From: Candidatus Latescibacterota bacterium
GTDB lineage: Bacteria > Latescibacterota > UBA2968
Direction of reading: 5' to 3'
Length of the DNA: 64,000 nucleotides
Assembly (NCBI GenBank): GCA_965222605.1
Contig: OZ244960.1
Span: 2,496,001-2,560,000 of the forward strand
Shown one piece after another: positions 5,657 to 52,923 of the stretch. The notes beneath the pieces were generated by a model. That model made no database searches. It had not been told where the DNA came from and saw nothing but the letters and a program-made list of their open reading frames with translations. Each line of letters opens with the position of its first letter. Positions within the stretch are counted from its first letter, which is position 1. The translations under genes and the position numbers were made by a program.

Positions 5657-6652
5657 ATGGCGAGATATGGTGTTCAACAAGAGGACTTTCACGGACACGC
5701 GCTTTACGTATTGCGGGATATTGAAACCAATCGTGAAGCCAGTATTTTGCCCTCGGTGGGCAACAATTGCATCTCCTACAAAATCCCAAAAAGCGATGGC
5801 CTGTTAGAACTGATTTATTCCCCGCCCGATCCCGACACCCTGAAAGGCCGCGCAAGTGGATACGGCATCCCCATATTATACCCCTGGCCCAACCGCATAG
5901 ATGGCGGCAAATTTTCGTTTGATGGCGCAGAATACCAGCTCGAAACCCCTGCCCCGGGCGAACACGCTTCTCACGGCTATGTTCACGAACGGCCCTGGCG
6001 CGTGGTCAATTCCGGCGCATCGGAAGGTGCGTGGGTAACCAGTGTCTTCACATCGACGGACTTTCCGGAAATCGGCGCGCATTTTCCCTTTCCCTTTGAA
6101 GCACGGGTAACATATCGGCTGAAAGACGGGATACTACACCTCGAATTTGAAGGCACCAATGCAGGCGATAGCGACATGCCCGTCGGCCTGGGCATCCATC
6201 CCTATTTCCCCCTACCACTCACTGAAAATAGCAACCGGGACCTGTGTACCGTGTGCATGCCCGCATCGACGTACTGGCCCTTGCGCGATGACCCCATCCC
6301 CACAGGAGAGATTTTATCCGTTGACGGCACAGTATTTGACGTGCGCGAAAACACGCTATTGAAAGATCGATATTACGACAACGTCTGGTCCGGCGTATCT
6401 TTAACCGATGGATGGAGCCGATGTGAATACATCGACCCAACCGAAGGCGTGACCATCGCAATGGAAGCCAACGACATATTCCGCGAACTCGTACTCTACG
6501 CCCCCGATACCCGTCCCATCGTATGCTTTGAACCCTATACCTGTGTCACCAACGCCTTCAATTTGCAAAATCAGGGCATTGATTCAGGCTTGATACGCCT
6601 CCAACCCGGTGAAAAACTAACCGGAATAATGAAAATTGTGGGGGAGGCATGA
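5657..6652 (+). CDS. Aldose 1-epimerase / galactose mutarotase-like protein
   Basis: GIPILYPWPNRI, HGY, GIHPYF and VCFEPYT motifs; RBS aaggag. Confidence 0.88.
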   Translation: MARYGVQQEDFHGHALYVLRDIETNREASILPSVGNNCISYKIPKSDGLLELIYSPPDPDTLKGRASGYGIPILYPWPNRIDGGKFSFDGAEYQLETPAPGEHASHGYVHERPWRVVNSGASEGAWVTSVFTSTDFPEIGAHFPFPFEARVTYRLKDGILHLEFEGTNAGDSDMPVGLGIHPYFPLPLTENSNRDLCTVCMPASTYWPLRDDPIPTGEILSVDGTVFDVRENTLLKDRYYDNVWSGVSLTDGWSRCEYIDPTEGVTIAMEANDIFRELVLYAPDTRPIVCFEPYTCVTNAFNLQNQGIDSGLIRLQPGEKLTGIMKIVGEA

Positions 6653-40070: not shown

Positions 40071-41003
40071 TCAAATCACCTCTTCCACCGCATCCGCAAT
40101 CGCTTCGATAAACACGGGATCGCTATTCATCATCTCGGTGCGTTCGAGGCGAATCCCGCGTTGTTGCGCAATCTCCTGGCAACCAATATCAATATCGTAA
40201 AGCACCTCCACGTGATCGCACACAAAACCAATTGGCGCGACCAGAACATCGCGATAATTGCCAGAGGCCAGTGCGGGAATCACATCTTCAATCTGCGGCC
40301 CCAACCAGGGTTCGCCCGTATTTGCGGCACTCTGATATGAAAACATCCAATCCACCGGTCCCAATTGATCCACAATCGCCTGTGCATTGCACATTAATTC
40401 ATCGTCATAAGGATCGCCCATTTTCAGCAACCGGGCCGGCAAGCTATGCGCCGAAAAAACCACCTTTGCCTTCTGCCTCGCATCCTCCGGAAATTTTTCC
40501 AATCCCGCCTTCACCTTTGCCGTCTGTGCATTGATCAACCGGGGCTGATCGCACCACGAATTGACATAGACAAATTCAATAGCACTCCCCACTTCTTTTT
40601 GGGCATCCTCGACCTTCTGTTGATAGAGCCCAATACTCATCCGCGAATAATGCGGCGCCATCACAATACCCACGGCCTTTTCAACACCATCCTCCTGCAT
40701 CTTTGCCACCGCCTCTACAATCCGCGGTTTCCAGTGACGCATCCCCGCATATGTCTTCACATTCCGCCCGCGCTTTTTCAACACCGCCTCAACATGCCCC
40801 GCCTGCTCAAACGTGCGTTCATTCAGTGGCGACTTGCCACCGATCTGTGCGTAGCGATTGCGAAACTCCGCCACAAATTCTGGCGACATCGGCCTGCCAC
40901 CCCGAATATCACTCAAATAAGCCGCCATATCGTCCAGCGAATCGGGACTGCCATAAGCCATTAAAAGCACGCCTATTGTTTTCTCATCGCGTCGTATATT
41001 CAT
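40071..41003 (-). CDS. hemH: Ferrochelatase
   Basis: VLLMAYGSP, GGKSPL, FSAHSLP, PWLGP, GFVCDHVEVLYDID. Confidence 0.93.
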   Translation of the reverse strand: MNIRRDEKTIGVLLMAYGSPDSLDDMAAYLSDIRGGRPMSPEFVAEFRNRYAQIGGKSPLNERTFEQAGHVEAVLKKRGRNVKTYAGMRHWKPRIVEAVAKMQEDGVEKAVGIVMAPHYSRMSIGLYQQKVEDAQKEVGSAIEFVYVNSWCDQPRLINAQTAKVKAGLEKFPEDARQKAKVVFSAHSLPARLLKMGDPYDDELMCNAQAIVDQLGPVDWMFSYQSAANTGEPWLGPQIEDVIPALASGNYRDVLVAPIGFVCDHVEVLYDIDIGCQEIAQQRGIRLERTEMMNSDPVFIEAIADAVEEVI

Positions 41004-42033
41004 GCACAAAATCAACCAATTTCCGCACATTCTCCACAGGTGTGCGCTGTAAAATCCCATGCCCCAAATTAAAAATATGCCCCGACTTACCCTTCACCGA
41101 ATCCAATACGCGCCCTGTCTGCCGCTCTATCTCCTCAAAAGGCGCGAACAACACAACGGGATCCAGATTGCCCTGCACACCCACATCATCGCCCAAACGA
41201 CGCCACGCCACATCCAGGTCAATGCGCCAATCAACGCCAATAACATCGCCTCCCGCTTCCTTCAACAACTCGAGAATACCCGCCGTGCCCGTGCCAAAAT
41301 GAATAAGCGGCACATCTACTTCTGCCTTCGCAATCGCAATCGCCTTCTGCGAATGCGGCAACACGTATTCGCGATAATCAGCCGGACTCAACGCCCCGAC
41401 CCAGCTATCAAACACCTGCAATACCCGAGCACCCGCCCGGACCTGCGCGATGAGATAATCGCCAATAGCTGTCGCCATCATATCCATCAAACGATGCCAT
41501 TGCTCTGTCTCGCCATACATCAACCCCTTGGCAACTTCGTAATTGCGCGACGAACCGCCTTCCACCGCATAACAAACCAGCGTAAAGGGCGCACCTGCAA
41601 AACCGATCAACGGAATGCGACCATTGAGTTCTGCTGCAGCCATCCGAATGGCGTCACCGGCATAAGGCATGGCCTCTTCGGCGGGTCTCAAGATCAAAGC
41701 ATCGATATCGGCCACTGTGCGAATCGGGTTGTGAATAACCGGACCCTCGCCTTTTACATAGTCCAGATCCAAACCCATCGATTCGAGAATCGGCAGCAAA
41801 TCCTGAAAAATAATCGCAGCATCCACATCATAAGCGTTCACAGGTTGCATCGTAATCGCCGTGGAGATCTCGGGCGTCTTCACCATATCGAGAAAACTGT
41901 AGCGATCGCGATACGTCCAATAAGCCTTCATATACCGCCCGGCCTGGCGCATAAACCAAACAGGCGTCGCATCCACACATTCACGACGACACGCTTTTAA
42001 AAAACGATCTGAACCGGGACCATCACCCATCAT
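40984..42033 (-). CDS. hemE: Uroporphyrinogen decarboxylase
   Basis: PVWFMRQAGRY, IGFAGAPFT, QVFDSW, IFNLGHG. Confidence 0.96.
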   Translation of the reverse strand: MMGDGPGSDRFLKACRRECVDATPVWFMRQAGRYMKAYWTYRDRYSFLDMVKTPEISTAITMQPVNAYDVDAAIIFQDLLPILESMGLDLDYVKGEGPVIHNPIRTVADIDALILRPAEEAMPYAGDAIRMAAAELNGRIPLIGFAGAPFTLVCYAVEGGSSRNYEVAKGLMYGETEQWHRLMDMMATAIGDYLIAQVRAGARVLQVFDSWVGALSPADYREYVLPHSQKAIAIAKAEVDVPLIHFGTGTAGILELLKEAGGDVIGVDWRIDLDVAWRRLGDDVGVQGNLDPVVLFAPFEEIERQTGRVLDSVKGKSGHIFNLGHGILQRTPVENVRKLVDFVHEYTTR

Positions 42034-42271
42034 CCAGCCCCTCCAGCACCCGCATCAAATCCTCCAGCGATACAATTTCTTCCCCAGTCCTAACAAGAAG
42101 CTCTGGCGCCGCGTCTTCCCCAGAGGTTCCAAACACAAACCACTCAAACTCGCGCAAAAACTTCAGACAATGCCACTCACCTGTGCGCGCGTAATCTTCG
42201 CTACACAACTCTCGAGGAATCGGGCATCCATCGTACAACCCGCGGGGGCAGGGTCTGCGTTTTTTCGGCAT
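42023..42271 (-). CDS. Small hypothetical Cys-containing protein
   Basis: 82 aa; gagg RBS; fills the glnA-hemE gap exactly; four Cys in the N-terminal half. Confidence 0.6.
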   Translation of the reverse strand: MPKKRRPCPRGLYDGCPIPRELCSEDYARTGEWHCLKFLREFEWFVFGTSGEDAAPELLVRTGEEIVSLEDLMRVLEGLDDG

Positions 42272-42280
42272 CTCTGTACC

Positions 42281-43615
42281 TCACAAAATCTTAAGGTGTT
42301 GATCCAGTTCGTAACCAGTCACCTGCGCCCTGTAATTGGCCCATTCGATCTTCTTGTTCGCAATAAACTTCTCAAAAATGTGATTGCCCAGGGCATTGCG
42401 AAGCAGATCGCTGCCCTCGGCGAGATCAATAGCCTGTGACAGATCCAGAGGCAGGGTTTTAATACCCGCTTTTTCTCGTTCAGCACTGGACATCTCAGCG
42501 ACATTCTTTTTCATAGGCGACGGCACTTCATAGCGTTTTTCAATACCCTCTAATCCCGCAGCCAGCATAATCGCAAATGCCAGATAGGGATTGCAGGCCG
42601 GATCGGGCGACCGGTATTCGACGCGCGTTGTACTCGCTTTATCTGGCGAATAGGCAGGCACGCGTACCAGATCTGATCGGTTGACCGCCGACCACGTTGT
42701 GTACAACGGGGCTTCGTAACCCGGCACCAATCGCTTATACGAATTTACCCACTGATTGGTCACCAGCGTCATCTCGCAGGCATGTTTGAGCAAGCCCGCG
42801 ATAAAATACCGCGCCGTAGCCGACAGATGGTATTCATCTTCAGCGTCGTAAAACGCGTTGTCTTCCCCCTGAAACAGCGACATATTCGTATGCATACCAT
42901 TGCCATTGGCACCAAAAAGAGGTTTGGGCATAAACGTCGCCCAAACGCCGTGTTTCACGGCAATCTCTTTCACCACCAAACGGTAGGTCATCGCATTGTC
43001 TGCCATAGTGAGCGCATCGGTATAAAGCAAATCGATTTCGTGTTGGCTGGGCGCGTCTTCGTGATGACTGGACGCCACCTCAATCCCCATTTTCTCCAGC
43101 GTCAATACGGTATCCCGGCGCAGATCACTCGCCACATCTAAAGATGTCTGGTCAAAATACCCACCCTCATCTAAACCTTTGAGAGGAACCTCGGGTTTTT
43201 CAAAATAGAAAAATTCCATCTCTGGACTTACGTAAAAAGCAAATCCCATATCGCCTGCGCGTTTCAAATTTTTTTTCAGCACCCAGCGCGGGTCTCCACG
43301 ATATGGTTTTCCCCCCGGCTGGAGAATATCGCAAAACATACGCGCAACTGTGCCGCCTTCCTGCGGGCGAAAGGGCAGCACCTGGAAAGTATTGGGATCG
43401 GGCATTGCGATCATATCGCTCTCGTCAATGCGCGCAAATCCCTCTACGGCCGAACCATCAAAACCGATCCCTTCGGTTAAAGCACCATCGAGTTGCTCAA
43501 CGGGAATTGCGACACTCTTTAGAAATCCCAAAATATCGGTAAACCAGAGCCTGATAAATTTGACCCCGTGTTCCGACGCGGCATTCAGCACGTATTCGCG
43601 GCTTCCATCATTCAT
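42281..43615 (-). CDS. glnA: Glutamine synthetase type I (alpha-like)
   Basis: FDGSAVEGF, HHEDAPSQHE, ATFMPKP, NSYKRLVPGYEAP, EYRSPDPACNPY. Confidence 0.92.
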   Translation of the reverse strand: MNDGSREYVLNAASEHGVKFIRLWFTDILGFLKSVAIPVEQLDGALTEGIGFDGSAVEGFARIDESDMIAMPDPNTFQVLPFRPQEGGTVARMFCDILQPGGKPYRGDPRWVLKKNLKRAGDMGFAFYVSPEMEFFYFEKPEVPLKGLDEGGYFDQTSLDVASDLRRDTVLTLEKMGIEVASSHHEDAPSQHEIDLLYTDALTMADNAMTYRLVVKEIAVKHGVWATFMPKPLFGANGNGMHTNMSLFQGEDNAFYDAEDEYHLSATARYFIAGLLKHACEMTLVTNQWVNSYKRLVPGYEAPLYTTWSAVNRSDLVRVPAYSPDKASTTRVEYRSPDPACNPYLAFAIMLAAGLEGIEKRYEVPSPMKKNVAEMSSAEREKAGIKTLPLDLSQAIDLAEGSDLLRNALGNHIFEKFIANKKIEWANYRAQVTGYELDQHLKIL

Positions 43616-43737
43616 AGTTCTAACCTGTATTTTACAGTGAAACAGCACCGAAATAACTGCCAAACTTACGCTTATTATATTTCGGGCAGGTTTCAGATAT
43701 ATTTCGCTAATATTAAAAGATAGTGATCCTACTCGGC

Positions 43738-43783: not shown

Positions 43784-44290
43784 CTACTGAACCCGCATCC
43801 ATGTATCAACCCAGGCCCCCTCATAAGATGCCGTCATCGTATTGCCTTCAAAAACCCACTGCTGCTCATCGTGTGCAATCTCAATTTTATCGCCTTCAAC
43901 AGTAATTTTGCCCTTCACACTTCTGCCTTTGGGATAAATCGACATAGATGCTTCGGCAGAAGAGCGATACCCCTGGCGAACCAGCACATGCCTGGCTCGC
44001 GTAATCGCCGATGTAGAAATTTCATACGTGCTGGCAGCATAATTAAATCGCCGGGGCGTGCCATCTTTTAAGTCTTCGAGAAAATTGAGCGTAACATGTG
44101 CTTTTCGAGAACTGATTGGCTCCCAAAAAAGCGACCCTTTTATATGTGGGGTACTCAACACAGTACCATCTTGCAATTGGCGCTTTTGCAAGACCCAGGT
44201 ACCTGCCAGTTGTGTTTGCATATCTGACAGACGATCACTGCATCCCTGCATCGCGAACACAGACAGGAAGAATATCATCAGGCGTTTCAT
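43784..44290 (-). CDS. Hypothetical lipoprotein, lipocalin-like
   Basis: RBS ggagg; lipobox MQG-C; LAGTWVL start motif and terminal WMRV. Own promoter TTGACA-17-TATACT at 44362-44334. Confidence 0.7.
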   Translation of the reverse strand: MKRLMIFFLSVFAMQGCSDRLSDMQTQLAGTWVLQKRQLQDGTVLSTPHIKGSLFWEPISSRKAHVTLNFLEDLKDGTPRRFNYAASTYEISTSAITRARHVLVRQGYRSSAEASMSIYPKGRSVKGKITVEGDKIEIAHDEQQWVFEGNTMTASYEGAWVDTWMRVQ

Positions 44291-44365
44291 TTTGGCCTCC
44301 GTGCGAGTTATCATCTCAAAAATGAACTTCTAAAGTATATTTTTCGATTTGCGCGCTGTCAAGCT

Positions 44366-44403
44366 AAAAAAAGAAAAGAAGAGCACCCAACGGTACTCTT
44401 CTT
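44366..44403 (-). terminator. Terminator after the sigma factor gene
   Basis: aagaagagcacc-caac-ggtactcttctt with a U-tract on the minus strand. Confidence 0.7.
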
Positions 44404-44436
44404 GTGAAACTGGATTACTGGCGTAATTACAATGTA

Positions 44437-45288
44437 TCAGGTCACTTCCAACAACGGCTCAAGCTGCGAGCGACGACGCGGATGGCGCAATCTGCGAAGT
44501 GCTTTCTCCTTAATTTGTCGCACGCGCTCTCTGGTCAAATTGAACCGAACGCCAATCTCTTCAAGCGTAAGCGGCTCTTCACCGCCCAGACCAAAATACA
44601 GGCGCAAAACCTCGGTCTCCCGGTCATCCAGAGATGTGAGCACATCTCTCACCTGTTCGCGCACCGAATCTTCTACAACTTCTTCATCGGGTGCCTTTTG
44701 CGTATTATCGGGCAACACATGCAGCAAACTGTGGTCATCCTCCTCGCGGAAAGACGCATCCAGAGACCAGACATCGCGCGCGCGCATCAGCGTATCCTGA
44801 ACCATCTCCACTGATACGCCGAGTTCTTTGGCCACAGTTTCGGGTTCGGGTTCGGTCTCGCTTGCTTGCCTCAGTTCGCGCGACACCTTTGAAATATTGT
44901 GCAACAAATCAATGCGGTTAATGGGCAACCGCACAACCCGCGAATCCTGTGCCAGACTCTGGTGAATCGCCTGGCGGATCCACCAAACAGCATAGGAAAT
45001 AAACTTAAAGCCCCGCGTGCCATCAAAGCGCTCGGCAGCCGTCATCAGGCCCATATTCCCCGCACTGATTAAATCGGCCAGAGGTACCCCGTGATTTTGA
45101 TATTCCCGCGCCACGCTCACCACAAAGCGGAGGTTGGCCGAAACCAGTTTATCTCTGGATCTCTGACAACCTTTATGAATCTTTTTTGCCAGTTCAATCT
45201 CTTCTGCGCTCGAAAGGGGTTCAGACGAGGCAATGTCTCGCAGATACAAATCCAGAGACTCACTGTCTTGAATCATAATTCCAGGCAA
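44437..45288 (-). CDS. sigma70 family RpoD/SigA-like sigma factor lacking region 1.1
   Basis: SLDLYLRDI, ANLRFVVSVA, FKFISYAVWWIRQAI, TLEEIG...LTRERVRQIKEKAL; TTG start with aggagg RBS. Confidence 0.93.
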   Translation of the reverse strand: MPGIMIQDSESLDLYLRDIASSEPLSSAEEIELAKKIHKGCQRSRDKLVSANLRFVVSVAREYQNHGVPLADLISAGNMGLMTAAERFDGTRGFKFISYAVWWIRQAIHQSLAQDSRVVRLPINRIDLLHNISKVSRELRQASETEPEPETVAKELGVSVEMVQDTLMRARDVWSLDASFREEDDHSLLHVLPDNTQKAPDEEVVEDSVREQVRDVLTSLDDRETEVLRLYFGLGGEEPLTLEEIGVRFNLTRERVRQIKEKALRRLRHPRRRSQLEPLLEVT

Positions 45289-45328
45289 GGGGAACCTCCT
45301 GTAAAAGGATGGGGAGCTGATGTATATG

Positions 45329-45895
45329 CTATAAAACAGAATGGGGAGACGACACCTTGCGAATTTGCGCGAGATGTTTCGTCATAAATTGATACATGCT
45401 CATCGATGTGTCGCAGGCCATTAACCCCGCACGCACATCTGAATTTTTAAACAGCAGGGCCAAATTGCTCAAAACCGACAGATAAGGCACAGGAGCCGCA
45501 TCGGGTACTGCAACCATGCATATCACGTGAACGGGTTCTGCATCTGGGGGAAAAGCAATACCCGTCTGAGAAATGCCCAATGCCACACCGGGCTGAGCAA
45601 CGGAGCGGCATCGCGCATGGGGCAGTGCAACACCCCGGCCCAAAACAGTACTCATCTGATCTTCTCGATCCAAAATAGTTTGCAAAAACTTCAGACTATC
45701 GACCACCTTCCTGCGCCCATAGAGCCGATCAACCAGTTCTTTGATCGCCCCCATGCGATCTTGTGATTGCAGATCGGGTACAAGAAGCGAAACATCAAAA
45801 TGGAAAACGTCTTCTTCGGGTAAAATTGTCGTTTGAGTCACCTGGCCCCCACACGCAACAAAATGCAGAATTTGCATCTTCAAACTATAAGACAT
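45329..45895 (-). CDS. PTS EIIA domain protein (PtsN/fructose-mannitol type; start uncertain)
   Basis: ILDREDQMSTVLGRGVALPHAR with the phospho-His retained. Confidence 0.85.
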   Translation of the reverse strand: MSYSLKMQILHFVACGGQVTQTTILPEEDVFHFDVSLLVPDLQSQDRMGAIKELVDRLYGRRKVVDSLKFLQTILDREDQMSTVLGRGVALPHARCRSVAQPGVALGISQTGIAFPPDAEPVHVICMVAVPDAAPVPYLSVLSNLALLFKNSDVRAGLMACDTSMSMYQFMTKHLAQIRKVSSPHSVL

Positions 45896-45989
45896 TTATT
45901 AGAAATGGAGAATAACTCATTAACATCAATAAAAACATAAGGTTAATCCCCAATATCAAAAATCCGCGATAAACGCGCTCTGATGTTAC

Positions 45990-46006
45990 AGCAATATCCG
46001 TGCCAA
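45990..46006 (-). promoter_or_regulatory. sigma54 (RpoN) -24/-12 promoter
   Basis: Minus strand TTGGCACGGATATTGCT matches TGGCACG-N4-TTGCW exactly. Confidence 0.88.
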
Positions 46007-46023
46007 AAATACACCTATAGGTA

Positions 46024-46137
46024 TAACTTATTGTTTATATTGCAAAAAGATTGAAAGATCGCATCTGCATACTCTTTTTTATCTCATTTAGTATGCAAAA
46101 ATTGCACCACATTTATAATCAAAATGCAAAAATTGCG
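46024..46137 (-). promoter_or_regulatory. IHF-like site and two upstream activator (enhancer) repeats
   Basis: Minus strand AAACAATAAGTTA (46036-46024) has one mismatch to WATCAANNNNTTR; ATGCAAAAATTGC occurs at 46093 and 46124 (31-bp period). Confidence 0.72.
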
Positions 46138-46147
46138 TTTTTGAAAA

Positions 46148-47506
46148 TTAGCGCAGATTATACGCCTTGATCTTGTATTGCAACGCGCGAACACTGATCC
46201 CCAACAAAGCTGCGGCCTTTTTGCGATTTGCCGTCACATGTGCAAGTGTTTTTTCGATAAGCGCGCGCTCTACTTCTGCAAGCGATGAACCGAGTTCGAC
46301 CGTTATGGTATCTGTCGCATTCTGGGCATCGCGCACCCGAGAAGGCAAGTGATCGACATCGACTTCTTGATCCGCACAGGTTACCACAATACGCTCAATA
46401 GTATTTTTTAACTCGCGCACATTGCCGGGCCATAAATAGGCCAGAACCCTGTCCATCGCATCGGGAGTTAATTCCTTGCGCGGTTTGTGGTGCAACACAC
46501 ACAGGTTATCAAAAAACACATCGATCAAAAGCGGAATATCTTCGACGCGCTCGCGAAGCGGTGGCAAGCGAATGGGCACCACATTGATGCGGTAATACAG
46601 ATCTTCTCTAAATCGCCCTTCTGCCACTTCTCGCTCGAGATCGCGATTGGTGACAAAAATGGTTCGCACATCTGCGGCCACCGCTTTGGTACTGCCCACC
46701 GGTCGATAGGCTCTTTCTTCTAATACCCGAAGCAAATCGACTTGATTGGGCAATGGGATTTCACCCACTTCATCAAAAAAAAGCGTCCCACCTTCAGCCG
46801 CGGCAAAAAACCCCGCCTTATCCGCTGTCGCGCCCGTAAACGCGCCTTTTACATAACCGAACAACTCGCTGCCGAATAATGTCTCGGCAAATGCCCCGCA
46901 GTTCATCGCCACCAGGGGCGCGTTCCGCCGCGCACTCGCATGATGAATCGCACGCGCCACGAGTTCTTTCCCCGTGCCCGTTTCTCCGGTAATCAAAACC
47001 GGCACATCGGTCATTGCCGCCTGCTCTATAGTATCACAGACGTGCTCCATGACGGCACTTCGATGCACAATATCTCCATTTTCACCATTGGAATCCAGAC
47101 GCGCTCGCAATACGCGGTTTTCCGCCACCAGTGCCTGGTGATCGAGCAAACGCTCTAAGGACAGGCGCAATCGCTTCAGATCTACTGGCTTGGTCAAATA
47201 ATCATAAGCCCCTCGTCGCATGGCTTCAACAGCCGTCTCCACCTCTCCATAAGCCGTAATCACAATAACGCCAATTTCGCGATTTGAACCGCTCACCCAC
47301 TTCAAAAGTGCCAGACCATCCTGACCCGGCATCTTAAGATCAAAAATCGCGGCGTCATACTCATGGGCTTCCATAAGTGCTTTTGCTTTGTGACCGTCAT
47401 AAGCCACATCAACCCGATAACCGTCTTTGGTCATCGCCTCCCGCAGACCTTCGCAGATATAGTACTCATCATCTGCAATTAAAATCCGAATCTCACTCGC
47501 GTCCAT
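46148..47506 (-). CDS. sigma54-dependent response regulator (NtrC/AtoC family bEBP)
   Basis: REC domain (ADDE...FDLKMPG...YLTKP), GETGTGKE, ELFGYVKGAFTGA, FREDLYYR, WPGNVREL, Fis-type HTH. Confidence 0.95.
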   Translation of the reverse strand: MDASEIRILIADDEYYICEGLREAMTKDGYRVDVAYDGHKAKALMEAHEYDAAIFDLKMPGQDGLALLKWVSGSNREIGVIVITAYGEVETAVEAMRRGAYDYLTKPVDLKRLRLSLERLLDHQALVAENRVLRARLDSNGENGDIVHRSAVMEHVCDTIEQAAMTDVPVLITGETGTGKELVARAIHHASARRNAPLVAMNCGAFAETLFGSELFGYVKGAFTGATADKAGFFAAAEGGTLFFDEVGEIPLPNQVDLLRVLEERAYRPVGSTKAVAADVRTIFVTNRDLEREVAEGRFREDLYYRINVVPIRLPPLRERVEDIPLLIDVFFDNLCVLHHKPRKELTPDAMDRVLAYLWPGNVRELKNTIERIVVTCADQEVDVDHLPSRVRDAQNATDTITVELGSSLAEVERALIEKTLAHVTANRKKAAALLGISVRALQYKIKAYNLR

Positions 47507-48578
47507 AAGTTGCCTCTGTTTGTCTCTCAGGCACGGGCAAATACACCCGGAAGGTCGTTCCCCGTTCGGGGCGGCTCTCAACGTCAATGTGTCCATCGTG
47601 CTGATAAATGATGCGCTGGGCAATAGACAGCCCCAACCCGGTACCTTCATCTTTGGTCGTATAATAAAACTCGAAAATGCGATCCACTTCTTCTTCGGGA
47701 ATCCCGCATCCCGTATCTGTAAGCATCAAACACACCTGCCCCGACTCGGTTTGTGTTCGGGCAATCAAATCGCCACCAGCGGCCATTGACTGAAAGGCAT
47801 TCACCACAATATTGAGCACGGCTTGACCGAGTTGATCTTCATCCCCATTGATCGCGGGCAGATCGTCGGAAAGTCCCAGACGCAACACGACCTCGCGCTC
47901 GCGCGCTTCGGGCGAGACCAGATCAAAAACACGGCGAACCACGTCGTTTAAAGACATCTGCCGCAAATGGAGTTTGGGCGTGCGCGAAAAACGCAAAAAA
48001 TTATGTACAATGCGGTCGAGTCGTTTCATCTCTGTTTGCGCAATATTGAGTCGCCCCACAAGACGATCTTTTAAGGCACTTGCCAACTCGTCGAGGTCTT
48101 CTTCCAACAATTGCAATTGAATATCAATCGCCCCCAGGGGATTGCGCACCTCATGGGCAACAGAAGCGGCCAAGCGCCCCAACGCCGTCATTTTTTCAAC
48201 TTGAAAGATCTCCCACTCCATCCGCTTTATCTCAGAGACATCGCGCACCGCCAGCACCAGCCCGCACTGCGTATCTGCATCTAAAAACGACGTGCTCACG
48301 CGCAGGTGTTGCAATCCACCGTCGGCATTGTGGTGTACCAGGTCTATATCTGAGACTAATACTTTGTTTTTCATACCCTCGTTCAAAATCCGCAACAACT
48401 CGGGGCGTTGGACAAATAGCATCTCTGGCGAAGCCCCGCAAACGGCCTGTTTGTCCCACCCCATCAATGCAATCAGATGGGCATTGACCATTACGGCCCG
48501 ATGTGTCTTATCAAAAGCCACGATGCCCTCCCCCAGCCCCTCCAAAATTGAGGCACTATAATCCATAGCCATGTCCAT
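47493..48578 (-). CDS. Soluble PAS-domain sensor histidine kinase (NtrB-like architecture)
   Basis: N-terminal PAS, H-box VAHEVRNPL, NAFQ, DTGCGI, GTGLGL; no TM helix; overlaps the regulator gene. Confidence 0.93.
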   Translation of the reverse strand: MDMAMDYSASILEGLGEGIVAFDKTHRAVMVNAHLIALMGWDKQAVCGASPEMLFVQRPELLRILNEGMKNKVLVSDIDLVHHNADGGLQHLRVSTSFLDADTQCGLVLAVRDVSEIKRMEWEIFQVEKMTALGRLAASVAHEVRNPLGAIDIQLQLLEEDLDELASALKDRLVGRLNIAQTEMKRLDRIVHNFLRFSRTPKLHLRQMSLNDVVRRVFDLVSPEAREREVVLRLGLSDDLPAINGDEDQLGQAVLNIVVNAFQSMAAGGDLIARTQTESGQVCLMLTDTGCGIPEEEVDRIFEFYYTTKDEGTGLGLSIAQRIIYQHDGHIDVESRPERGTTFRVYLPVPERQTEATYGRE

Positions 48579-48723: not shown

Positions 48724-51387
48724 TTGAATAGAGAAATCGTCAATACCCTCCCACGCGATCTGCTCAACGCAAAAAAAAGATCAGACACCTGGCCCACCGA
48801 ACGCCTGTCGTATTTGCGAACCTATCTCGACACCACCTGGGAAACGATTTATGCACACCACCAGAGCGGTGCATCGGGCAGCACTATAGTTGCAGCACTC
48901 ACACAGCGCGTCGATACACTCATCCAGGCACTGTATGCCGAAGCAATTGAAGAACACGGTGAGCCAACCAGATTTGCCGTAATCGCGCAAGGAGGATATG
49001 GTCGGGGGGCGCTCAACCCCCGCTCGGATATCGACCTGTTATTTCTCTTTAACAAAAAAGTCCGTGAAGGCGACCCCATAACGCGCGCGATTCTCCACAC
49101 CCTGTGGGATCTGCGATTTGAAGTGGGATATAGCACACGCACCCCTTCCGATTGCATTATTGCAGCGCAAGACGACACCGATTCCATGACTGCAATGCTC
49201 GAAACGCGCCATCTCGCGGGTGATCCCACCTTAGAGACCCAACTGCAAGACGCCCTTGCGCGGCGGTTTTTTGGCAGACGCGCGAGCGGTTTTATCAACA
49301 AAAAATCTCAGGAACGCATCCAGCGACACAGCAAATTCAAATTTTCAACCCAACTCCTCGAACCCAATGTCAAAGAAAGCCCTGGGGGATTGCGAGATAT
49401 TCACACAGCGGGCTGGTTCTTAATGGCGCGCCGCGGTATTCGCGCGCCCGAAGGTTTGCAAACAAGCCATATACTCACCCACAGAAATTACGAGATCTAT
49501 ATCAAAGCCTTTGATTTCATGCTGCGCACGCGCAGCGAACTGCACTTTCACACGGGCAAACACTTTGACGTACTCGAGCACGACCTTCAACTCATTATCG
49601 CCGAAAATCTGGGCTACAAAGATCGGGACAATGAATTGGGTGTGGAACACTTTATGCGAGACTACTACACCCATGCGCGTGCTATTAAACATCTCAGCGA
49701 CCTGATATGTGAACGCCTCAAAAGCCAATCCTCCACCGGTCGGGCTGTGGGATTGCTCACGCGCCGTCAACTCGATGACGGCTCCGTACTACACCACACG
49801 CACATTGCCCTGCCCAAAAAACGACGTCATTTTTTTACTGACACGCCCCACCGCCTCTTCTCCCTTCTCCTCAATGCACAGCGATTTGGCGTTCCCCTCA
49901 ACGAAGCGGCCAAACAAGGAATCAAAGACCACCTCCATCTCATTGACGATAGCTTCAGGTCTTCTGAGCGAGCCAGCCGCATTTTTCTCGACCTCTTCCG
50001 CGCATCCGTTGGCATTGGCACCACCCTTCGCACCATGCACGAACTCGACATTTTGGGCACTTATGTACCCGAATTCGACAGCCTGACCTGCCTGGTACAA
50101 TACAATCGCTATCACATCTACACAGCAGACGAACACACCCTGGTTGCTGTGGAGCGTCTCAATTACCTCGCGCGGTCTCCTTCTCTGCCCCATGATTTGC
50201 AACACCTCAGACGCGTGTACAATGAAATCTCGAGAAAAGAGCTTCTCTATCTCGCGCTGTTGATGCACGACGTGGGAAAATCTGTTCGCGGCAAAGATCA
50301 CAGTATTGTCGGTGCAGAAATGACACAGGACTTTCTCAAACGCCTCCAATTGCCCGACGACCAGATAGAAACCGTTGTCTTTCTCGTGCGACACCATCTC
50401 GCGATGTCCGGTATTGCCCAGCGCCGCGACCTCTCAGATCAGCGCATGATCGCCGAATTTGCCAACACCTTTTCACACCCCGATGTCTTGCGTATGCTCT
50501 ATGTACTCACTTATGCCGACCTATCTGCCGTCACCCAAACTGCCTGGACCGCCTGGAAAGGTCACCTCTTGCGCGAACTCTACGAAAATACCTTTTATAT
50601 ACTCACGAAAAGTACCCATCCCGACCGCGAGCAACCCGAACAACAAGACATTCGGAAAATCCTCGCTGCTCTGGAGCCGCGCATTCCACATCAGACCCTC
50701 GTTGAACATCTCAACAACATGCCCCCGCGCTATCCCGAACAAAATAGCCCAGAAGAAATTGCACAGCACCTGCAACTCATCGACGCAATAGGCTCCTCGC
50801 TGGTCGCCGTTAGCTTACAACCCAGTGGCCTTTTTTTGGAAATCACCATCTGTACGCACGACCAGCCCTTTCGCCTCTCTGAAATTTGTGGTGTGCTGGC
50901 AACCCACGACATCAACATCTTCAGCGCACATGCCTATACGCGCAATGATGGTACAGTCATCGACATCTTTCAGGTAACTTCCGATATGGACAATGACGCC
51001 ACATTGCGAAAAAAAATTCAACAAACCCTGACCGATGTCTTTCAACAAAAAGAGCGCGTCTCAGACCTGTTCGCCAATTACAGTCAGAGGTGGTCCCTGC
51101 GGCGGCAGCCCACAGTTCCCATTTCCCCCGAAATAACATTCGACAATAATGTTTCCATGCGTTCTACCGTCATCGACATTCTCGCACGAGATGCAACAGG
51201 CCTCCTGTATCGCATCACGCGCACATTATCAGAGCTTGGCCTCGACATCTACACCGCTCGCATTGGCACCCAGGCAGATCGCGCTGTCGATGCCTTTTAC
51301 GTGCGTAAAAATGGCGATAAAATCACAGATACTGCATTGCTCGAACACATCACCCGCGAACTAACGCACGCCATAGAGAATCCGTGA
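48724..51387 (+). CDS. glnD: [Protein-PII] uridylyltransferase/uridylyl-removing enzyme
   Basis: GGYGRG...SDIDLL, LEPNVKESPGGLRD, YHIYTADEHT, HDVGK and two ACT domains. Confidence 0.95.
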   Translation: MNREIVNTLPRDLLNAKKRSDTWPTERLSYLRTYLDTTWETIYAHHQSGASGSTIVAALTQRVDTLIQALYAEAIEEHGEPTRFAVIAQGGYGRGALNPRSDIDLLFLFNKKVREGDPITRAILHTLWDLRFEVGYSTRTPSDCIIAAQDDTDSMTAMLETRHLAGDPTLETQLQDALARRFFGRRASGFINKKSQERIQRHSKFKFSTQLLEPNVKESPGGLRDIHTAGWFLMARRGIRAPEGLQTSHILTHRNYEIYIKAFDFMLRTRSELHFHTGKHFDVLEHDLQLIIAENLGYKDRDNELGVEHFMRDYYTHARAIKHLSDLICERLKSQSSTGRAVGLLTRRQLDDGSVLHHTHIALPKKRRHFFTDTPHRLFSLLLNAQRFGVPLNEAAKQGIKDHLHLIDDSFRSSERASRIFLDLFRASVGIGTTLRTMHELDILGTYVPEFDSLTCLVQYNRYHIYTADEHTLVAVERLNYLARSPSLPHDLQHLRRVYNEISRKELLYLALLMHDVGKSVRGKDHSIVGAEMTQDFLKRLQLPDDQIETVVFLVRHHLAMSGIAQRRDLSDQRMIAEFANTFSHPDVLRMLYVLTYADLSAVTQTAWTAWKGHLLRELYENTFYILTKSTHPDREQPEQQDIRKILAALEPRIPHQTLVEHLNNMPPRYPEQNSPEEIAQHLQLIDAIGSSLVAVSLQPSGLFLEITICTHDQPFRLSEICGVLATHDINIFSAHAYTRNDGTVIDIFQVTSDMDNDATLRKKIQQTLTDVFQQKERVSDLFANYSQRWSLRRQPTVPISPEITFDNNVSMRSTVIDILARDATGLLYRITRTLSELGLDIYTARIGTQADRAVDAFYVRKNGDKITDTALLEHITRELTHAIENP

Positions 51388-51639
51388 AAAGACGAATCGC
51401 GCTTTTTTCTTTTACTTGACAAGCCACATTGTTTGTTTTACGTTTAGGTCAACTTCAAAATGCATTCCCTCGCACTAATGCTCCGCATCCTACCCCTTAA
51501 TATTCCAAAACATTATTCTCCGTAGGCTTCGCAGTAATCCAATGATTTCGCACAGCGTCTGTTTTGCGCCACACACAGCATGGTATCGTTCGGGCATGTA
51601 TTACTTCTCCCCTTTCCAACCCATCAGGAACCTCAAAAA

Positions 51640-52923
51640 ATGGCAGTGACCGAAGAAAAATTGAACATGTTTGAGTTGCAGGAATTCAGCATTCCCGAAC
51701 TCAACAAACACGCGCAAGCACTCAATATTCAAGGCTACAGCAGTCTGCGAAGACAAGAACTTATCTTCGCTATTCTCCACAGCCAAACCGCAAAAAGTGG
51801 ACGTATCTTCGCACAGGGTGTTCTCGACATCCTCGAAGACGGATTTGGCTTCCTCAGATCGCCCAAGTACAATTATTTGCCCGGCCCCGACGACATTTAT
51901 GTAGGCCACTCGCAAATCAAACGCTTTAACCTGCGAACTGGAGACACCATATCGGGGCATATTCGTCCACCGAGAGGCGACGAAAAATACTTCGCACTCA
52001 TTCGCGTTGAGGCCGTCAATTTTGAAGATCCGGAAATCGCAAAACAAAAAATCCTATTTGACAATCTCACGCCTCTACACCCGGACGAACGCATCAACCT
52101 CGAGTACGATTCACAGGACCTTTCCACGCGTATCATGAATCTCCTAACGCCAATTGGCAAAGGTCAACGCGGCATGATTGTCGCGCCTCCGTTTACGGGC
52201 AAAACCATGCTCTTGCAAAAAATTGCCAACGCCATTACCAAAAACCATCCCGAAATCATGCTCATTGTCCTCCTCATCGACGAGCGCCCTGAAGAAGTCA
52301 CAGACATGATCCGTTCGGTCGAGGGCGAAGTTGTCAGTTCGACCTTTGACGAACTCCCAACCCGACATGTACAGGTCGCCGACATGGTCATTGAAAAAGC
52401 CAAGCGATTAGTCGAGCACCAGCAGGACGTGGTCATTTTGCTCGACAGCATTACCCGCTTAGCACGAGCCCATAACACCGTTGCCCCCCACAGTGGGCGC
52501 ATCCTCAGCGGGGGTCTCGATTCGACGGCTATGCAGTGGCCCAAGCGATTTTTTGGCGCAGCGCGCAACATCGAAGAAGGCGGCAGCCTGACCATCCTGG
52601 CAACTGCCCTCGTCGAAACCGGAAGCCGCATGGATGAAGTCATCTTCGAAGAATTTAAGGGCACGGGCAACATGGAACTCAAACTCGACCGTCGGCTCTC
52701 CAATCGCCGCGTCTTTCCCGCCATTGACGTATCCATGTCCAGCACGCGCAAAGAAGAACTCTTGCTCAAAGAAAAAGAACTCAACCGCGTTTGGATCTTG
52801 CGAAAACTACTCAATCAGATGCAACCTCTGGAAGCGATGGAATTTTTCACAGAACGCACCAAAGAAAACAAAACCAACGAAGACTTCCTCAATGCCATGA
52901 GTGAACCGATTCACGCCTTCTAA
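51640..52923 (+). CDS. rho: Transcription termination factor Rho
   Basis: [36 protein letters not shown]. Confidence 0.97.

Follow-up and report, generated by a model that had tools for sequence, protein, structure and literature searches.

The 64,000-nucleotide stretch analysed here (positions 2,496,001 to 2,560,000 of contig OZ244960.1, from a Candidatus Latescibacterota bacterium; hereafter the window) contains a compact regulatory locus, all elements of which lie on the minus strand. In the direction of transcription, these are genes for a sensor histidine kinase and an NtrC-family sigma-54 activator, a spacer of 252 nt carrying two palindromic activator sites, an IHF-like block and a putative sigma-54 promoter, and genes for an EIIA protein of the phosphotransferase system (PTS) and an RpoD-family sigma factor, which are followed by an intrinsic terminator. 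The features are listed in Table 1.

Table 1. Features of the locus and of its flanks, in order of decreasing position in the window.
Feature	Position	Strand	Remarks
glnD (PII uridylyltransferase)	48724..51387	+	divergent; context
Sensor histidine kinase, 361 aa	47493..48578	-	Pfam: PAS, HisKA, HATPase_c
NtrC-family sigma-54 enhancer-binding response regulator	46148..47506	-	Pfam: Response_reg, Sigma54_activat, AAA_lid_14, HTH_8
Upstream activator site 1, cGCAATTTTTGCAt	46124..46136	.	palindrome TGCAA-N3-TTGCA with 1 mismatch; centre about -151; from motif and alignment
Upstream activator site 2, TGCAATTTTTGCA	46093..46105	.	exact palindrome; centre about -120; from motif and alignment
IHF-like block WAAYAA-N4-TTR, AAACAATAAGTTA	46024..46036	-	about -57..-45; from conserved position
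Putative sigma-54 promoter TGGCACGGATATTGCT (-24 GG, -12 GC)	45990..46005	-	exact TGGCACG-N4-TTGCT; predicted start 45979
PtsN-like PTS EIIA	45329..45895	-	PF00359, 102 bits (gathering score 27); start 45895 or 45877
Third activator-type site TGCAAATTCTGCA	45863..45875	.	about +105..+117; from motif search and alignment
RpoD-family alternative sigma factor, 283 aa	44437..45288	-	regions 1.2, 2, 3 and 4 (PF00140, PF04542, PF04539, PF04545); no region 1.1
Intrinsic terminator closing the EIIA-sigma operon	44376..44403	-	12-pair stem and T-run
Syntenic lipoprotein gene	43784..44362	-	no Pfam family; flank and possible target
glnA	42281..43663	-	downstream; context

An earlier note, made from the letters of the window, had described a soluble PAS kinase followed on the same strand by a REC-GAFTGA-Fis activator, and the Pfam domains, the translation and the hydropathy bear this description out. 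The highest 19-residue Kyte-Doolittle mean of the kinase is only 1.25, hence no membrane segment is predicted. The open reading frame of the activator opens at 47650, but translation probably begins at the ATG at 47506 (MDASEIRIL...), giving an overlap of 14 nt with the end of the kinase gene; the REC domain begins just past this ATG. The domain set of the NtrC family is complete (PF00072, PF00158 with 224 bits, PF02954), GAFTGA is present in the translation, and among solved structures the nearest is chain 4l4u, whose deposited title is 'Transcriptional regulator (NtrC family)'. The source genome, metagenome-assembled into one contig of 6.34 Mb, encodes at least 17 sigma-54 activators.

Neither protein could be assigned to a curated equivalog. 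The best NCBIfam rows of the kinase are AtoS (NF008468; 293 bits, cut-off 646) and NR(II) (NF008293; 124 bits, cut-off 240), and the activator reaches 427 bits on AtoC (NF008469; cut-off 714) and 386 bits on NtrC (TIGR01818; cut-off 558.6). Given all four cut-offs are missed, both the AtoS/AtoC and the NtrB/NtrC identities were rejected. The kinase aligns end to end on the NR(II) model (residues 5-349 on positions 6-347 of 349), and its match to the AtoS model is confined to positions 268-613 of 616.

In the spacer, the two upstream sites are exact copies of ATGCAAAAATTGC, 31 bp apart from start to start, and the TGGCACG-N4-TTGCT element is an exact match pointing into the EIIA gene, both as the earlier note had it. 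The start in Table 1 was predicted from the C of the -12 GC at 45991. The element is the sole TGGCACG-N4-TTGCW match in the window even with one mismatch permitted; since about 0.95 such matches are expected by chance, the lone match proves little, and it is conservation that constitutes the evidence. The same caution applies to the IHF-like site. It carries one mismatch, and such matches are found 57 times in the window against 55.8 expected, so that a claim made on the strength of the lone match was rejected; the block was retained solely for its conserved position, given that both pattern and placement, about 31 bp upstream of the TGG, are kept among 21 aligned loci.

The third activator-type site lies 116-154 bp past the TGG in related loci. 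In the source genus it shares bases with the second in-frame ATG of the EIIA open reading frame, and in other genera it is found in the 5' leader, about 100 nt before the start codon and with stop codons in between. Hence, it is conserved as DNA and not as protein. A search of Rfam for a leader RNA family gave nothing beyond a sub-threshold hit on the terminator.

Genome-wide, 319 sites lie within one mismatch of the palindrome, yet the only triple and the only pair spaced by about 31 bp are those of this locus. The sequence GCAATTTTTGCA occurs six times in the genome and is paired solely here. No other activator-type site cluster was found anywhere in the 6.3 Mb, glnA included, which fits the description of the system as self-contained. 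Strict -24/-12 motifs number 47 in the genome against a chance expectation of about 12 by our own arithmetic. One of them, TGGCACGCGATTTGCA, lies about 1 kb downstream of rpoN (L001 position 3973, about G000 C1 31792, plus strand; L and G denote our locus and genome handles).

Conservation was evaluated on three sets of loci, which overlap in genomes and together represent about 50 species. In the first, composed of the source genome and 19 others of its genus, the promoter and both repeats are kept in 20/20 loci. The second has 19 further loci (one of the genus and 18 of other genera of the same family or order), which present the order kinase, activator, EIIA, sigma factor wherever the contig permits, and 18 of them carry a strict -24/-12 motif between activator and EIIA. 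In the third, 48 of the 80 loci returned for the sigma factor encode it at 77% identity or more. A strict motif is present in 45 of the 46 orthologous loci with upstream DNA, and the remaining one (L067) has the relaxed form TGGCACCAAACTTGCG; a GAFTGA activator lies immediately upstream in every orthologous locus with enough flank.

An alignment of 21 diverged intergenic regions with MAFFT left only five conserved blocks: site 1 (tGCAA-N3-TTGC), site 2 (TGCAA-N3-TTGCa), WAAYAA-N4-TTR, the promoter (TGGCA-N6-TTGC-T) and the third site (TGCAA-N3-(T/C)TGC(A/G)). Both upstream sites are present in 21/21 aligned loci, and their spacing is 30-33 bp throughout related loci. Six of the 21 regions (L062, L064, L065, L068, L071 and L085) also carry a CRP/FNR-like palindrome (e.g., TGTGACCGGGATCACA, TGTGATCTTGGTCACA) between site 2 and the IHF-like block; the source genus is without it, and in the sister family the largest genus carries another palindrome, rich in GC, at this position.

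These values bear directly on the possibility that the motifs are due to chance, or serve another factor, and that no sigma-54 control exists. Although the lone promoter match in the window is indeed at chance level, the exact -24/-12 spacing and the site pairs persist in two families in which the intervening DNA can no longer be aligned, and the activator gene lies immediately upstream in every locus with enough flank. We consider this explanation highly improbable.

The other components the circuit would need are encoded in the genome. There is one rpoN gene in the source genome (424 bits, cut-off 277), and rpoN was found in 50/53 genomes of the order, the three misses being fragmented assemblies that are 82-92% complete. 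Four genes of the HU/IHF family are present in the source genome. The checks put forward by the earlier note on rpoN, on IHF or HU, and on the conservation of synteny, promoter and repeats thus all came out in its favour.

The range of the module was surveyed in 168 genomes of the phylum. Sigma factor orthologues of at least 78% identity are confined to two families of a single order, in which they occur in 28/30 genomes plus the source genome, and in 22/22; the two misses among the 30 are assemblies about 90-91% complete. In nine loci of the largest other family, the nearest sigma factor is 62-64% identical, and neither a strict -24/-12 motif nor a gene for an activator or for EIIA was found nearby. 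Hence, a phylum-wide module was ruled out, and the module is order-wide only.

With respect to the cargo of the promoter, the earlier note had listed the EIIA gene, a gap of 40 bp, the sigma gene and a terminator. The gap is indeed 40 nt, with no terminator-like site in it, and the stem and T-run of Table 1 close the operon. The sigma gene starts with TTG, 6 nt past an AGGAGG. The gap is 24-62 nt in 14/16 related loci (86 nt and 204 nt in the other two), and GGAGG precedes the sigma start in all 16. In L075, the 204 nt of the gap (5797-6000) are an insertion that contains a long hairpin of high stability (-75 kcal/mol) and resembles a small mobile or repetitive element.

Contigs nearly identical to the locus were found in four sponge metatranscriptome libraries of one study. 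The EIIA-sigma junction is bridged in three of the four runs (X2, 44996-45436; X3, 45156-45367; X4, 45182-45358), and the contigs of the fourth run, X1, span 44422-45278, 45287-45660 and 45703-45914. The kinase and activator genes are patchily covered, in two runs, and 45923-46435 has no contig in the four libraries; an uncovered region counts as no evidence.

An alternative is that the sigma-54 promoter serves the EIIA gene only, the sigma gene having a promoter of its own. The strong ribosome-binding site of the sigma gene, the one locus with a structured 204-nt gap, and L086, where EIIA does not lie between promoter and sigma gene so that the two genes are separable, all lean that way. However, the short gap of the related loci, the absence of a terminator-like site in that of the window and the contigs crossing the junction argue for cotranscription, as the earlier note proposed. 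L086 itself also counts against the alternative, given that the same sites and promoter stand there directly before the sigma gene, with EIIA after it; therefore, the sigma gene, judging by these arrangements, is the constant cargo of the promoter. We regard a promoter serving EIIA only as improbable.

The sigma factor is, according to its sequence relationships, an alternative, lineage-specific RpoD paralogue with the full region set of Table 1, and is neither RpoS nor the housekeeping sigma factor. The genome holds seven RpoD-like sigma genes, all of them short and all under the RpoD cut-off. Sigma factors from outgroups (Ignavibacteria, Zixibacteria, Chitinispirillia and Bacteroidota) match another, primary-like paralogue best, located at G000 2901239-2901946 in the source genome, with 47-77% identity against 44-59% for the sigma factor of the window. 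Those of Ignavibacteria and Zixibacteria present 71-77% against 55-59%, and those of Bacteroidota about 51% against about 44%. In a maximum-likelihood tree of 41 rows, the other paralogue groups with the outgroups (support 81/94), whereas the sigma factor of the window falls within a clade of Latescibacterota only (96/94; subclade 97/99). The paralogue count, the outgroup identities and the tree rule out a housekeeping identity, and RpoS was rejected given a score of 264.3 bits on TIGR02394, where the cut-off is 378.7. The RpoD/SigA-like alternative sigma factor of the earlier note thus agrees with the phylogeny it had called for, which places the protein outside the primary sigma factor.

Orthologues across the order are 78-98% identical to this sigma factor (78-92% outside the genus). 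Region 4.2 reads TRERVRQI, the same as in the primary-like sigma factor of the genome, where RpoD of E. coli has TRERIRQI; where the primary-like copy has a Leu in region 2.4, this sigma factor has an invariant His. The 1.5 kb upstream of each of the other six RpoD-like genes contain no strict -24/-12 motif. The 8.1-Mb genome G080 encodes three extra copies of the sigma factor (L087, L134 and L135), with 63-65% identity. One of them has TGGCACGTTCCTTGCC 109 nt upstream and no palindromic sites, and another is convergent to a gene for a 45%-identical activator, with kinase genes.

Taken together, these results suggest, with a probability we put at roughly 0.8, that the locus encodes a dedicated cascade leading from a two-component system through sigma-54 to a sigma-70-family factor. 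The soluble PAS kinase would phosphorylate the adjacent NtrC-type activator, which would bind the two TGCAA-N3-TTGCA palindromes. A bend at the IHF-like block may then help the activator reach the sigma-54 holoenzyme at the promoter, which would open and start transcription near the predicted position. A single mRNA would carry the PtsN-like EIIA and, behind its own ribosome-binding site, the RpoD-like sigma factor, and would end at the terminator. The third site probably tunes the output; it could act as a downstream enhancer or looping site, or else limit transcription when the activator is abundant. The new sigma factor would, finally, redirect RNA polymerase to another set of genes. What is observed are the sites, the domains, their conservation, an rpoN gene and a sigma factor that is one of several paralogues; from these we infer the phosphotransfer, the binding of the activator, the position at which transcription starts, one transcript for both genes and what the third site does. 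The central proposal of the earlier note, an adjacent activator switching on an alternative sigma gene, is supported by rpoN, by the conserved motifs and synteny, by the phylogeny and by the operon structure.

Some observations weigh against this cascade. The single promoter match in the window, taken alone, is no better than chance. The 204-nt gap of L075 is strongly folded and could uncouple EIIA and sigma gene there, and a promoter inside the EIIA coding region may exist. RNA-library contigs are no proof of one continuous transcript, and such libraries may contain DNA. Furthermore, the genus of L086 has no adjacent kinase and has EIIA after the sigma gene, which shows that the block is not rigid.

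The EIIA protein raises a question of its own. Its phospho-acceptor, His93 in G[VI]A[LF]PHAR, is kept without exception in 20/20 orthologues, and among solved structures its profile comes closest to PtsN proteins (2a0j, 3urr and 1a6j), although it remains under the PtsN/EIIA-Ntr cut-off (TIGR01419, 38.3 bits against 138.7). A second and more PtsN-like EIIA of 153 aa is encoded elsewhere in the genome, which has one HPr-EI operon and no EIIA gene adjoining rpoN. An EIIA gene adjoins the sigma gene in 48/48 orthologous loci, upstream in 45 and only downstream in three, and at least four loci (L064, L065, L067 and L068) have EIIA genes on both sides. Another type of EIIA lies directly downstream of the sigma gene in L061, L063, L064, L065, L067, L068 and L086. 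This type is 24-34% identical to the upstream EIIA and to the PtsN-like copy of the genome alike, and in L086 it is the only EIIA beside the sigma gene.

One reading of this pairing, compatible with the cascade, is that EIIA is a phosphorylation-controlled partner of the sigma factor, either an anti-sigma factor or a helper: the kinase would set synthesis and the EI-HPr relay, through the supply of phosphoenolpyruvate (PEP), would set activity. The adjacency is kept while gene order varies, His93 is invariant, the genome has the HPr-EI operon, and the relatives of the profile are PtsN proteins, all of which is consistent with such a role. By itself, nevertheless, gene adjacency is weak evidence of binding. 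In addition, EIIA diverges fast (41-59% identity outside the genus, against the much higher values of the sigma factor), and a tight interface might resist such divergence.

A co-fold of EIIA and the sigma factor, as suggested by the earlier note, was computed from our own alignments of both proteins. It yielded a median score of 0.57 (runs of 0.57, 0.01 and 0.61), and the best of three controls reached 0.00; at least 69% of the contacts coincide between runs, and the partner has a predicted local distance difference test (pLDDT) value of at least 71. In the calibration, the mark was reached by 116/157 solved complexes and by 2/215 mismatched pairs. Scores of 0.60 or less, however, comprise only 18/157 solved complexes and both passing mismatches. 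A pass in this band is, according to the tool, more often wrong than right unless the prior guess was likely, and one run gave 0.01. The co-fold returned no interface. The proposed check thus gave weak support to the binding.

We know of no direct sigma-binding role of PtsN proteins, which counts against the partnership; the known effect of PtsN on sigma selectivity in E. coli runs through potassium. Overall, a phosphorylation-controlled partnership is a tentative possibility, and the direct binding of EIIA to the sigma factor that the co-fold models is, if anything, slightly more doubtful. The most specific version, to which we give somewhat less weight still, is that EIIA, phosphorylated on His93 by HPr, would bind and gate the cotranscribed sigma factor, the inputs being the signal of the kinase (possibly nitrogen) and the PEP/pyruvate state, with the third site limiting the amount of the pair. 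Our literature search found no paper describing a PTS relay that acts directly on a sigma factor.

The signal received by the kinase may be related to the neighbouring genes. In the window, glnD lies divergently upstream and glnA downstream on the strand of the module. Within 6-kb flanks of the 48 orthologous loci, glnA is found downstream in 28 and glnD upstream in 10, in several genera. In the source genome, the module is flanked by rho and glnD (48724-52923) on one side and by glnA, hemE, hemH and a protoporphyrinogen-oxidase-like gene (40071-43663) on the other. This suggests the kinase and activator could be the NtrB/NtrC-like nitrogen sensor of the lineage, the sigma factor and EIIA being made on nitrogen limitation, which would be compatible with the cascade. 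The kinase is soluble, resembles NtrB in size and architecture and matches the NR(II) model over its whole length, and the three activators of the genome that score higher on the NtrC model are not beside obvious nitrogen genes. Those three, however, fit that model better and along their full length, and both proteins of the locus remain under the NtrB/NtrC cut-offs and score higher on the AtoS/AtoC models. Moreover, glnA has no activator-type site cluster, the PII genes are located elsewhere in the genome, and the largest genus of the sister family has rho in the place of glnD and no glnA within 6 kb. A nitrogen signal is therefore conceivable, though we would not presume it.

Directly behind the sigma gene, the lipoprotein gene presents a promoter-like motif conserved across the order, CTTGACA-N17-TATACT (44362..44334, minus strand), which is kept in 16/16 sequences (the window and 15 related loci) while its surroundings have diverged. 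It mostly stands right after a terminator-like hairpin and T-run, which in the window is the terminator of the sigma gene. The motif could be a target of the adjacent sigma factor. An attempt to define a regulon from it was abandoned, given TTGACA-N17-TATACT occurs only four times in the genome. Genome-wide, the counts are 43 for TTGACA-N17-TATATT and 10 for the form with TATAAT, which hints at TATATT as the usual -10 element.

To our knowledge, almost nothing is known of gene regulation in the Latescibacterota, given that the phylum has no cultured members. The proposed circuit is compact and fully specified: a sensor and an activator, a promoter with three operator sites and a bend site, and two genes as cargo. 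It could be reconstructed in E. coli, so that the organism itself would not have to be grown. If the reading holds, a second sigma factor has come under sigma-54 once more, in a lineage that belongs neither to the spirochaetes nor to the proteobacteria, and this time it is a duplicate of a short FCB-type primary sigma factor. The constant pairing of sigma factor and EIIA raises the testable idea that a phosphotransferase relay talks directly to a sigma factor, and the order-wide third site offers a natural case for studying a downstream activator site at a sigma-54 promoter. The earlier note had regarded the arrangement as undescribed. A literature search, which did not cover subscription journals, returned no description of it or of Latescibacterota sigma factors, including in passages of PMC12316311 and PMC3162934, yet the idea of such a cascade has precedents. 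Three features appear to be new: an EIIA gene on the same predicted mRNA, a third site downstream of the promoter, and a sigma factor that arose as a duplicate of the FCB-type short sigma factor.

In comparison with AtoS-AtoC of E. coli, the kinase and the activator have AtoS and AtoC as their best NCBIfam rows, and the atoC-atoD spacer (NC_000913) is laid out alike, with a palindromic ATGCAGAAATTTGCA pair followed by TGGCACTCCCCTTGCT (TGGCAC-N5-TTGCT). The AtoC site of that genome is GCTATGCAGAAATTTGCACA and its inverse. The resemblance of the repeat to this site, given in the earlier note with a slightly different string, is therefore real but is not identity, since the half-sites are TGCA-N6-TGCA in E. 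coli and TGCA-N5-TGCA here, one base narrower. In addition, the kinase is a soluble protein roughly half as long as the AtoS model, both proteins fall under the equivalog cut-offs, and the cargo consists of regulatory genes instead of the acetoacetate catabolism genes atoDAEB.

The proteobacterial rpoN-hpf-ptsN operon also places a PtsN-type EIIA gene beside a sigma-factor gene. As in that operon and in the nitrogen PTS (PMC4635465), EIIA shares a predicted operon with a sigma factor, and a transport-free EI-HPr-EIIA relay could be purely regulatory. Here, however, the partner belongs to the sigma-70 family and rpoN has no EIIA beside it, and the EIIA scores under the PtsN cut-off (38 bits against 138.7), with the more PtsN-like protein encoded elsewhere.

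Activator sites at sigma-54 promoters also include the ftr sites of FlbD in Caulobacter and the 'governor' sites of NtrC at glnAp2, and a downstream enhancer for RocR at rocG of B. subtilis was reportedly described by Belitsky and Sonenshein in 1999 (cited in PMC3162934). The third site resembles these in being an activator-type site on the transcribed side; unlike them, it is a single downstream candidate site that joins a normal upstream pair and is conserved order-wide.

Activators that, together with sigma-54, switch on the gene of another sigma factor are known from HrpR/HrpS and HrpL, and from FleQ/FlrA and FliA. Such hierarchies are treated in PMC12285254. In contrast with HrpL and FliA, which are of the extracytoplasmic function (ECF) or sigma-28 type, the sigma factor of the window is fully RpoD-like, with regions 1.2 to 4.

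A further precedent, named already in the earlier note, is that of Borrelia, and the present circuit would work alike, although Rrp2 is not known to need a defined enhancer and BosR is required as well. According to PMC11109971, PMC4014564 and PMC2940757, in the Hk2-Rrp2-RpoN-RpoS pathway of Borrelia burgdorferi an NtrC-type activator fires the -24/-12 promoter of an alternative sigma gene. The path from a two-component NtrC-type activator, through a -24/-12 promoter, to the gene of a sigma-70-family factor would thus be shared. Unlike in Borrelia, the sigma factor of the window is not RpoS (264 against 378.7 bits on TIGR02394), the kinase, activator, promoter and sigma gene are contiguous with a classical two-site enhancer, and EIIA is predicted to share the mRNA, with a third site downstream of the promoter.

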